The notes under the pieces were generated by a model that did no database searches, was not told where the DNA came from, and worked only from the letters and a program-made list of their open reading frames with translations. A stretch of 32,000 bases of DNA from Nitrososphaerota archaeon. Lineage in GTDB: Archaea; Thermoproteota; Nitrososphaeria; Nitrososphaerales; UBA57. Location of the stretch: contig JABUBF010000003.1 of assembly GCA_013306035.1 (NCBI GenBank), forward strand, positions 28,850-60,849, read 5' to 3'. Below, piece by piece: positions 10,533 to 18,582 of the stretch (the stretch's first letter is position 1; each line of letters starts with the position of its first letter). Position numbers and translations under genes: made by a program.

Positions 10533-10635
10533 GGCCGCCGGTGGGTTTCGAACCCACGACCTGAACCTATCTGCTTTTCTTGACCCACAGGGTCCTATGC
10601 TACCAACTACACCACGAATTGACTAATAATCGGCC
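10533..10635 (-). tRNA. tRNA-His(GUG) with two introns (acceptor stem 4/5 and canonical 37/38)
   Basis: Exons 10635-10631 (G-1 GCCG), 10617-10585 and 10568-10533 join to a 74-nt cloverleaf. It has an encoded G-1 opposite C73, the anticodon loop CUGUGGA, the T arm GUGGG UUCGAAA CCCAC and the acceptor GCCGUCG/CGGCGGC. The introns are 10630-10618 (13 nt) and 10584-10569 (16 nt). Each is bracketed by a 4-bp helix (UGGC/GUCA and CUGU/GCAG) with 3-nt bulges at the predicted cut sites. A second GGCCG at 10651-10647 could be an alternative 5' exon (see the rejected list). Confidence 0.85.
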
Positions 10636-10676
10636 ACGTGTACAGACGGCCTACAATAAAAAAGTACTAAGATTGA

Positions 10677-17348: not shown

Positions 17349-18062
17349 TTGAACAAACAACCTAATATGACTGAAATTATAGAAAATTTTCACAATGGCG
17401 AGTTTATATTCTTACACGATGATGATTCACGAGAAAATGAAACTGACATAATGCTTGCCGCCAAACACGTCACTCCAAAAAAAATTAATCAAATGAGGCA
17501 ACTTGGTGGGGGACTTCTTTGTGTGGGTATTTCTCCGGATATCGGCTCTAAATTAAATCTCTCATATATGTGGGATATTCTATTACAAACAAAATCCCCT
17601 TCATTAAGTAGTCTTGTTAATACAAATCGCAATACATCACAACGTTCTACTCATTCTATAACATTTAATCATCGAACTCTCGGAGGCGCAACAGATTTAC
17701 AACGTTCTAGCACAATTTCTTCTTTACATGAACTATGCAAAGACTATACTTCAAACAATAATCTCTCTAGCGATTTTCATTCTATGTTTGAATCACCAGG
17801 ACATCTACAAATGCTCATTGGTTCTCCCGGCCTCCTTAAATCAAGAGAGGGCCATACAGAACTCAGTTTATTTCTGTGTGAAGTCTCTAATCTAATACCT
17901 ATAGTAATTATGTGTGAAATATTGGACAATCAAACCTTTACTGCTAAATCTGCCGATAATTGTGAACAACTGGCCAAAGAAAACAACATAACGTTTATCG
18001 AAGTAGATACAATTCTAGATTATTACAAAACTAATTTTAATAACGGACCCGGTGAGACTTGA
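17349..18062 (+). CDS. ribB: 3,4-dihydroxy-2-butanone 4-phosphate synthase
   Basis: Motifs are GEFIFLHDDDSRENETD, GGGLLCV, SPGHLQML and REGHTELS. This matches the layout of archaeal RibB as I recall it. An alternative ATG start lies at 17367. The last 19 nt overlap the tRNA-Arg 3' exon on the opposite strand. Confidence 0.85.
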   Translation: MNKQPNMTEIIENFHNGEFIFLHDDDSRENETDIMLAAKHVTPKKINQMRQLGGGLLCVGISPDIGSKLNLSYMWDILLQTKSPSLSSLVNTNRNTSQRSTHSITFNHRTLGGATDLQRSSTISSLHELCKDYTSNNNLSSDFHSMFESPGHLQMLIGSPGLLKSREGHTELSLFLCEVSNLIPIVIMCEILDNQTFTAKSADNCEQLAKENNITFIEVDTILDYYKTNFNNGPGET

Positions 18063-18191
18063 ACTCACGACCTCTAACCAAGATTGATTACTCAATCTCT
18101 ACAGCTGTCACCATGAATTAGGAGGATCGGCTATCTTCTGCCGCGCTAATCCAGATTACGCATTCTTTTCATAATTCTGCGCTACGGGCCC
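18044..18191 (-). tRNA. tRNA-Arg(CCU) interrupted by four introns (five exons)
   Basis: Exons 18191-18177, 18155-18138, 18125-18119, 18106-18101 and 18073-18044 join to a 76-nt tRNA: GGGCCCG UA GCGC AGUCUGGAUUA GCGC G GCAGC CUCCUAA GCUGU AGGUC GUGAG UUCAAGU CUCAC CGGGUCC G. Conserved positions U8, A14, G15:C48, G18G19, A20, A21, G26:A44, U33, A37 and G53:C61 are all satisfied. The introns are 18176-18156 (21 nt), 18137-18126 (12 nt), 18118-18107 (12 nt) and 18100-18074 (27 nt). Each has a bulge-helix-bulge-like context. Confidence 0.8.
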
Positions 18192-18213: not shown

Positions 18214-18221
18214 CTATAAAA
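18214..18221 (-). promoter_or_regulatory. Candidate TATA element (TTTTATAG on the minus strand) upstream of tRNA-Arg
   Basis: It spans -23 to -30 relative to the tRNA 5' end at 18191. Confidence 0.35.
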
Positions 18222-18243: not shown

Positions 18244-18582
18244 ATGAACGACAAGTTAATTGACGAAGTTATTTCTGTTGACGATCAATCATTTCACTTA
18301 TTTATTTTAAAATATTCAAATGGATATTTTGTATCTCTTGCCCAGGGAAACGAGCCAAATTTAGGATCTATGTCTCTTTCTTTAAAGAAATCAAATTTAG
18401 TTAATACTACAATTATCATTCCTAGTAGGTTTTCTCCTATGATTCCTCAACTGATCAGTGAACTAGCTAGTGATTTATCTGACGGTATTGGTATCTCATC
18501 TGTATATATTAAAAAAGACTTGAAAACGGAAACAGCAGTTACTCTTCTTAAAACTATAAAATCATATATTAAAGAATTATAA
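18244..18582 (+). CDS. Hypothetical protein
   Basis: A 112-aa ORF with no motif I recognise. Its 3' end overlaps the convergent HD-domain gene by 6 nt. Confidence 0.45.
   Translation: MNDKLIDEVISVDDQSFHLFILKYSNGYFVSLAQGNEPNLGSMSLSLKKSNLVNTTIIIPSRFSPMIPQLISELASDLSDGIGISSVYIKKDLKTETAVTLLKTIKSYIKEL

Follow-up and report, generated by a model that had tools for sequence, protein, structure and literature searches.

Main-text statements published up to 2021 put the largest number of introns in a single archaeal tRNA gene at three (PMC8450103; PMC3218864). In Thaumarchaeota, tRNAscan-SE 2.0, which has a dedicated covariance model, reported 107 non-canonical introns in the genomes analyzed (PMC8450103). 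More recently, introns were found in 92 to 95% of the tRNA genes of three Asgard genomes (Valentin-Alvarado et al. 2024, PMC11291895), and Supplementary Data 4 of that study (Nat Commun 15:6384) has columns for a fourth intron, filled in several rows. For example, these rows include a 143-nt Freyarchaeia tRNA-Arg(TCT) gene whose four introns measure 14, 15, 12, and 24 nt and whose internal exons measure 9, 8, and 8 nt, a Freyarchaeia tRNA-Ile2(CAT) with four introns at 101.7 bits, a Freyarchaeia tRNA-Leu(GAG) and an Atabeyarchaeia tRNA-Trp(CCA) with four introns by R2DT, and an Atabeyarchaeia tRNA-Lys(TTT) with four introns by tRNAscan-SE and a predicted 7-nt internal exon. Here we describe a tRNA-Arg(CCU) locus in a 32,000-nt stretch of a Nitrososphaerota genome (GCA_013306035.1, contig JABUBF010000003.1, positions 28,850 to 60,849; the window). 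A first-pass annotation, made from the letters of the window, had proposed five exons and four introns for this locus and had given three introns as the published maximum for an archaeal tRNA gene; the Asgard rows make that figure outdated. Conservation, covariation, and intron-less homologues strongly support the locus as a true tRNA-Arg(CCU) gene in five exons, with four bulge-helix-bulge (BHB) introns, micro-exons of 7 and 6 nt, and a G3:U70 pair.

The gene (18044..18191) is on the minus strand, read from 18191 to 18044, and its identification rests on the join of its segments, on identity in metagenomes, and on six orthologues. A 148-nt precursor would yield a 76-nt mature form through removal of introns of 21, 12, 12, and 27 nt, which lie at 15/16, 30/31, 37/38, and 43/44 in tRNA numbering. 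Exon 1 (18177..18191, 15 nt) holds tRNA positions 1 to 15, comprising the 5' acceptor strand, U8 and A9, the 5' D-stem strand, and A14 and G15. It is followed by intron 1 (18156..18176), which has an HBh'-type motif, and by exon 2 (18138..18155, 18 nt), which covers positions 16 to 30 with the D loop, the 3' D-stem strand, G26, and nucleotides 27 to 30. Intron 2 (18126..18137) lacks an h' helix, as does intron 3 (18107..18118) at the canonical 37/38 site, and between them lies the first micro-exon, exon 3 (18119..18125, 7 nt), which consists of C31 and CUCCUA (positions 31 to 37) and includes the anticodon CCU. The second micro-exon, exon 4 (18101..18106, 6 nt), provides A38 and the 3' anticodon-stem strand (positions 38 to 43). 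Intron 4 (18074..18100) has an HBh' motif, and exon 5 (18044..18073, 30 nt) contributes positions 44 to 73, with the variable loop, the T arm, and the 3' acceptor strand bearing U70 and G73. No CCA is encoded at the 3' end. These coordinates and segment lengths reproduce those of the first-pass annotation throughout.

Joining the five exons gives GGGCCCGUAGCGCAGUCUGGAUUAGCGCGGCAGCCUCCUAAGCUGUAGGUCGUGAGUUCAAGUCUCACCGGGUCCG, which ARAGORN calls as tRNA-Arg(cct) with a regular cloverleaf, bearing out the earlier description of a textbook 76-nt tRNA after four excisions. The join places U8, A14, G18G19, A21, U33, G53, T54-Psi55-C56, A58, and C61 where they are conserved, and the arginine identity set can be read from it directly: an anticodon CCU with C35, A20 in the D loop, and the purine discriminator G73. 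The G3:U70 pair proposed along with these elements is likewise present in the sequence. G+C content of the spliced tRNA is 63%, in a genome with 32% G+C. The string GCGCGGCAGCCTCCTAAGCTGTAGGTCGTGAGTTCAAGTCTCAC spans its junctions and includes an HMT-specific T arm (HMT, heterotrophic marine Thaumarchaeota). Before splicing, ARAGORN does not call the gene with its intron option off or on, and the Rfam tRNA model misses it at both gathering and E-value thresholds. The sole Rfam match at the unspliced locus is to the tmRNA model, at 13.8 bits, over the acceptor stem and T arm.

All four introns have the same local geometry. Under the BHB rule applied here, the four exon nucleotides that lie 3 to 6 upstream of the 5' cut pair with intron nucleotides n-5 to n-2, so that every cut falls 2 nt into a 3-nt bulge beside a 4-bp helix in which the 5' exon pairs with the 3' end of its intron. 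In intron 1, G10-C13 pair with GCGU (GCGC/GCGU) between the bulges AG|A (5') and AA|U (3'), and the h' inner helix has 3 bp. In intron 2, C25-C28 pair with GCCG (CGGC/GCCG) between AG|A and AU|C, this 3' bulge coinciding exactly with the 3 nt that link the intron-2 hairpin to the intron-3 hairpin. In intron 3, C32-C35 face GGUG (CUCC/GGUG), with a U33.U mismatch, between UA|A and AC|A. In intron 4, A38-U41 pair with GGUU (AGCU/GGUU) between GU|A and AG|A, and the h' hairpin has 8 bp closed by a GUAA loop. Introns 2 and 3 are 12-nt mini-introns in which the 5' cut falls within an 8-nt hairpin loop, an arrangement that can be called BHL-like (helix plus loop). Altogether 15 of the 16 central-helix pairs form, compared with a mean of 5.0 when the introns are shuffled; none of 200,000 shuffles reached 15. 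The four central helices, the positions of the cuts within the bulges, and the intron-4 hairpin had all been described correctly in the first-pass annotation.

Orthologues were sought by scanning a T-arm and acceptor pattern against one genome per species. The degenerate T-arm pattern mostly matched unrelated tRNAs of Caldarchaeum and Bathyarchaeia, and only six of the matches were orthologues. These six other HMT species (L036, L076, L057, L039, L047, and L064) share the five-exon layout in syntenic loci that are 72 to 97% identical to the window over 8 kb, and together with the window they form the seven-sequence alignment used here. L036 is the ASW8 metagenome-assembled genome (MAG) of the HMT described by Aylward and Santoro in 2020 (PMC7300363), and on the basis of synteny with it the window was assigned to the HMT lineage. 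The locus was also identical in 10 marine metagenome contigs, so that close relatives provided no variation for analysis.

Across the seven species, variation and indels are concentrated in the proposed introns. Only 3 of 76 exon columns vary, compared with 26 of 74 intron columns, and all eight gapped columns are intronic (Fisher p = 7e-7), indels being confined to introns. The three variable exon columns are A9/G9 in exon 1, nucleotide 27 (G/A, always paired with U43) in exon 2, and nucleotide 70 in exon 5, which is U in six species and C in L064; micro-exons 3 and 4 are invariant. The cloverleaf is 100% paired in all seven species. Pairing of the splice helices is 95.1%, compared with 29 to 37% when their 3' partners are slid by 1 to 3 columns, and four splice-helix pairs have undergone two-sided, compensatory changes. 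The pair between nucleotide 27 and intron 2 is G:C in three species, G:U in two, and A:U in two, which amounts to full compensation, while the h' helix of intron 1 has changed from U:A to C:G and that of intron 4 from G:C to A:U in L064. Intron lengths range from 19 to 21 nt (intron 1), 11 to 13 nt (intron 2), and 24 to 28 nt (intron 4), intron 3 being 12 nt throughout, and the inner helices from 3 to 5 bp (intron 1) and 6 to 8 bp (intron 4), with the motif geometry kept in every orthologue.

Independent support for the exon join comes from tRNA genes of other archaea. A spliced 28-mer, GCGCG(R)CAGCCTCCTAAGCTGTAGGTCG (CAGCCUCCUAAGCUGUAGGUCG), which spans the junctions between exons 2 and 3, 3 and 4, and 4 and 5 in the anticodon arm, occurs uninterrupted in 63 metagenome contigs, always within a tRNA-Arg(CCU) gene of another archaeon (for example L128, GGGCCCGTAGCGCAGCATGGATAGCGCGGCAGCCTCCTAAGCTGTAGGTCGTGGGTTCGAATCCCACCGGGCCCG). 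The tRNA genes on these contigs differ from the window gene in their T arm and G+C content. An uninterrupted copy with the T arm of the window gene was found in none of the genome and metagenome scans, which searched loci rather than whole genomes, and the locus is probably the only AGG-specific tRNA of its host. As judged from these sequences, the five-exon join is the form that evolution treats as the tRNA.

The intron sites have precedents as well. Among the tRNA-Arg(CCU) genes checked in other archaea, at least 6 are interrupted at exactly 15/16, and in most of these the nucleotides at the intron boundaries also agree (AG|A ... GCGY-AA|U). In a Nitrososphaerales MAG (L084), the only intron of the gene lies at 30/31 and, like intron 2, ends in GAU|C. 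Counting the canonical 37/38 site, three of the four positions are therefore seen elsewhere. In eight further metagenome contigs (L107, L148, L096, L104, L111, L121, L131, and L097), tRNA-Arg(CCU) genes with an identical anticodon arm carry other D-loop introns, at about 20/21, and that of L148 has an additional T-loop intron. From these sequences, tRNA-Arg(CCU) appears to have been a recurrent target of non-canonical introns, in several lineages. In Bathyarchaeia and Pelearchaeum (L027, L037, and L061), inspection by eye also picks out tRNA-Arg genes with at least two close insertions around the anticodon arm; in L061, for example, the arrangement is ..GGGCGCCG[aagagcatgcgcag]GCCTTCGGA[cctcctaagcagagaaaggcgggaagac]AGCCGG.., with the insertions in brackets.

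Several features bear on how such a gene might be expressed and processed. A TTTTATA sequence read at 18215..18221 on the minus strand, -30 to -24 from G1, is a candidate archaeal TATA box, and the block AACTTTTATA is identical upstream of all seven orthologues despite flanks that are only 72 to 97% identical. This box presumably acts as the promoter of the tRNA gene, and its position is consistent with a transcript that would be almost leaderless. We infer the transcription, the enzymes, and the order of splicing from the sequence, and the following sequence of events would account for the locus: a functional HMT tRNA-Arg(CCU) gene would be transcribed from the conserved TATA box as a 148-nt precursor with four BHB introns. 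Because each central helix is formed by an exon and its own intron, with the last six exon nucleotides providing one strand and two bulge nucleotides, the precursor could fold into four consecutive local hairpins flanked by the acceptor stem and the T arm. An EndA endonuclease, assumed to be of the (alpha-beta)2 type, would excise the introns by cutting 2 nt into each 3-nt bulge, and a ligase, assumed to be of the RtcB type, would join the exons into a standard 76-nt arginine tRNA that reads AGG. Broad-specificity (alpha-beta)2 EndA, which accepts HBh' and hBH motifs as substrates, has been reported in Thaumarchaeota (PMC4090602).

The micro-exons suggest an ordered reaction, because simultaneous cleavage on both sides would release and lose an exon as short as 7 or 6 nt. 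Introns 1, 2, and 4 would be removed first and the canonical intron 3 last, because the outer helix of intron 3, which is the anticodon stem, forms only once intron 2 is gone and also needs the intron-4 central helix opened. In a three-intron tRNA of Cyanidioschyzon merolae, ordered processing has been shown experimentally, and the 37/38 intron is the last to leave (PMC3728597). When introns 1, 2, and 4 are taken out of the window precursor, the predicted minimum free energy (MFE) structure is a cloverleaf with the anticodon stem, a 4-bp helix, and a 3-nt bulge at intron 3. More speculatively, the hairpins of neighboring introns could serve as outer helices for each other, enforcing an obligatory order in which the exons of 6 to 7 nt are never released.

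For the complete precursor, RNAfold gives pairing probabilities of about 1 to the acceptor stem and T arm, to the central helices in introns 1 and 2, and to the hairpin of intron 4. In the MFE fold, the intron-4 helix is shifted and has 3 bp. That fold also contains an 8-bp helix between 18146-18153 and 18114-18121 (precursor nucleotides 39-46 and 71-78), which pairs the D loop in exon 2 (UGGAUUAG) with a segment that runs from the last nucleotides of exon 3 into intron 3 (CUAAUUCA). All seven species retain the helix, with two one-sided, pair-preserving changes in L064. It would bury the 5' splice site of intron 3, and it may delay cleavage there or may be due to chance; we do not claim it as a feature, because by our estimate 148 nt of RNA should contain such a helix by chance.

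Several observations weigh against a functional four-intron gene processed in this way. In the full precursor, RNAfold assigns introns 3 and 4 central-helix pairing probabilities of about 0, and the conformation with all BHB motifs formed is 10.8 kcal/mol less stable than the predicted MFE fold. Intron 2 lacks an h' helix, and in the primary transcript its h pairing is limited to scattered positions. The intron-3 helix is mismatched at U33 in all seven species (U.U or U.C) and has no covariation, and the central helix of intron 4 is uninformative because it is invariant. Finally, the endonuclease and ligase genes of the host were not seen in the 32-kb window. With these points included, a functional four-intron tRNA-Arg(CCU) gene processed by EndA and RtcB is still the best explanation of the sequence as a whole, and we consider it very likely.

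Two other accounts of the locus would remove this interpretation or redraw it. A former tRNA-Arg gene that has acquired insertions and decays as a pseudogene, neither expressed nor spliced, would explain why standard detectors do not see it and why the intron-3 helix is imperfect, yet such a gene should not have exons that are 96% invariant in flanks only 72 to 79% identical, while the insertions vary and carry all of the indels. The compensatory changes that keep the splice helices, the conserved upstream TATA block, the identity of the locus in 10 independent marine metagenome contigs, and the lack of an uninterrupted copy with the same T arm in the scanned loci all point the same way, and a pseudogene can hardly be credited. 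A real gene with a different exon-intron map, having fewer introns, another anticodon loop, or boundaries off by 1 to 2 nt, finds some room in the sequence itself, because terminal nucleotides repeat: it admits two positions for intron 3 (37/38, 38/39) and three for intron 4 (43/44, 44/45, 45/46). The shifted intron-4 helix of the MFE fold could be taken in the same sense. All of these registers, however, give the same mature RNA. Registers shifted by up to 3 nt were tried and gave worse or non-contiguous motifs, inner helix, central helix, and bulges being contiguous only in the registers of the first-pass annotation; alternative anticodon loops drawn from intron 2 or intron 3 were also considered, and by inspection none has U33. 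Since the five-exon join is also the only one that reproduces the 28-mer left uninterrupted in 63 other genes, a different map is very unlikely, though a little less so than a pseudogene.

The remaining alternative accepts the four-intron gene and concerns what the spliced tRNA carries. The G3:U70 pair is the main determinant of alanyl-tRNA synthetase (AlaRS) in all domains of life, and the first-pass annotation had raised dual charging by AlaRS and arginyl-tRNA synthetase (ArgRS), which would make AGG ambiguous between arginine and alanine at a low level in the U70-bearing HMT subclade. The pair is found in the window gene and five orthologues; its presence in six of the seven HMT species shows that it is not a sequencing error. 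It is absent from about 30 other distinct tRNA-Arg(CCU) genes retrieved, those that could be parsed cleanly all having G3:C70; automated parsing of position 3:70 in metagenome matches went wrong for a few genes with D-loop introns, and this comparison is used qualitatively only. Of the tRNA-Ala identity set, however, the tRNA has G3:U70 and lacks A73, its discriminator being G73, and the arginine elements A20 and C35 are intact. The window has 37 AGG codons among 9,070 (4.1 per 1000), too many for harmless ambiguity, next to 210 AGA, 58 CGA, 57 CGT, 19 CGC, and 5 CGG. When window genes were compared with their orthologues, the codons aligned to window AGG were AGG (25), AGA (22), lysine codons (10), CGT (2), and alanine (1). 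Arginine or lysine thus accounts for 59 positions and alanine for 1, the same pattern as for AGA and unlike that for GCA, and L064, which has G3:C70, is no different. Dual identity is thus without support and decidedly improbable, if less so than the two structural alternatives, and the earlier default of standard decoding stands, with AGG evolving like an ordinary arginine codon; mischarging at a low level could escape such a sequence analysis. At window AGG sites, the more distant HMT species mostly use AGA, so AGG seems enriched in the subclade of the window, L036, and L076. If dual charging were true, a streamlined, globally distributed archaeon would have a dual-identity tRNA. In an arginine tRNA, G3:U70 is a small, testable oddity.

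The surroundings of the gene offer further observations. The convergent ribB (DHBP synthase) open reading frame (ORF; 17367..18062, plus strand) shares its last 19 nt, encoding the tail ..NGPGET, with the complement of the tRNA 3' end (18044-18062), an overlap that had been noted correctly. Only the window, L036, and L076 have a ribB stop inside the complement of the T arm; in L057 and L039 the ORF runs right up to the tRNA (0 nt), and in L064 it stops 9 nt short. Judging from these sequences, the overlap arose when a stop codon was recently lost, an accident of one subclade with no functional meaning. Beside the tRNA promoter, a 112-aa ORF (18244-18582, plus strand) is exactly conserved in many marine metagenomes (172 index blocks) and has no Pfam match. 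A second interrupted tRNA gene, tRNA-His(GUG), lies at 10539-10650 on the minus strand. It scores 30.2 bits in Rfam over model positions 6-65 only and has a clean 16-nt intron at 37/38 with a central helix, CUGU/GCAG, in which all four pairs form. Its 5' acceptor strand is not contiguous, reading GGCCG[tctgtacacgtgg]CCG[attattagtcaattcg]TGGTGTAG; with both bracketed pieces removed, ARAGORN calls a tRNA-His with an 8-bp acceptor stem and an encoded G-1:C73. None of the eight equivalent placements of these 5' pieces gives a BHB-like helix.

The consequences of a functional four-intron gene extend to annotation and to tRNA processing. Both ARAGORN and the Rfam tRNA model miss what is probably the only AGG reader of a globally distributed dark-ocean archaeon, and tRNA censuses and completeness estimates for genomes of about 1 Mb would therefore wrongly report it as absent. 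The gene is also a compact natural substrate, conserved across species, with which EndA and RtcB could be studied on closely spaced sites, on mini-introns without an inner helix, and for the order of splicing. That four introns were kept under strong genome streamlining, with compensated splice helices, is relevant to a debated question, namely whether tRNA introns are under selection or simply tolerated.

Among known systems, the Thermoproteales are similar in combining non-canonical introns of BHB, HBh', or hBH type with a canonical one in hosts with heterotetrameric EndA (PMC4090602), as in the tRNA-Pro(UGG) gene of Pyrobaculum islandicum, which is interrupted at 25/26, 37/38, and 56/57 (Sugahara et al. 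2007, 2008). They differ in having a maximum of three introns and in being hyperthermophilic Crenarchaeota with GC-rich genomes, whereas the archaeon that hosts the window gene is marine and mesophilic or psychrophilic, and its genome of about 1 Mb has 32% GC. The nuclear tRNA genes of C. merolae have up to three BHB or BHL introns, the shortest of 11 nt (Soma et al. 2013, PMC3728597), and the order shown there by reverse transcription-PCR, with the 37/38 intron last, is the order proposed for the window gene; they belong to a eukaryote, however, and some are also permuted. The non-canonical introns of Thaumarchaeota are similar in being short, of BHB type, and in the same phylum, in a survey that speaks of "up to three" per archaeal gene (PMC8450103); our coverage of the literature, which is incomplete, turned up no report of a four-intron tRNA gene in this phylum.

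The window gene closely resembles the Asgard genes, in which four short introns likewise occur in a single tRNA gene. With four-intron tRNAs tabulated in 2024, it matches the highest intron count tabulated for any tRNA gene rather than exceeding it, and extends this extreme from Asgard archaea to Thaumarchaeota. The architecture of the Freyarchaeia tRNA-Arg(TCT) gene is nearly the same as that of the window gene, with its 148 nt, introns of 21, 12, 12, and 27 nt, and internal exons of 18, 7, and 6 nt, a likeness of layout. The Asgard genes belong to another phylum and stand in the supplementary table as tRNAscan-SE or R2DT predictions, with no comparative support given in those rows. What appears to be new here is the phylum Thaumarchaeota, the covariation support from seven species, and the 6-nt internal exon, which falls below the 7 to 9 nt that we calculated for internal exons in a few of the multi-intron genes tabulated for Asgard archaea in 2024.

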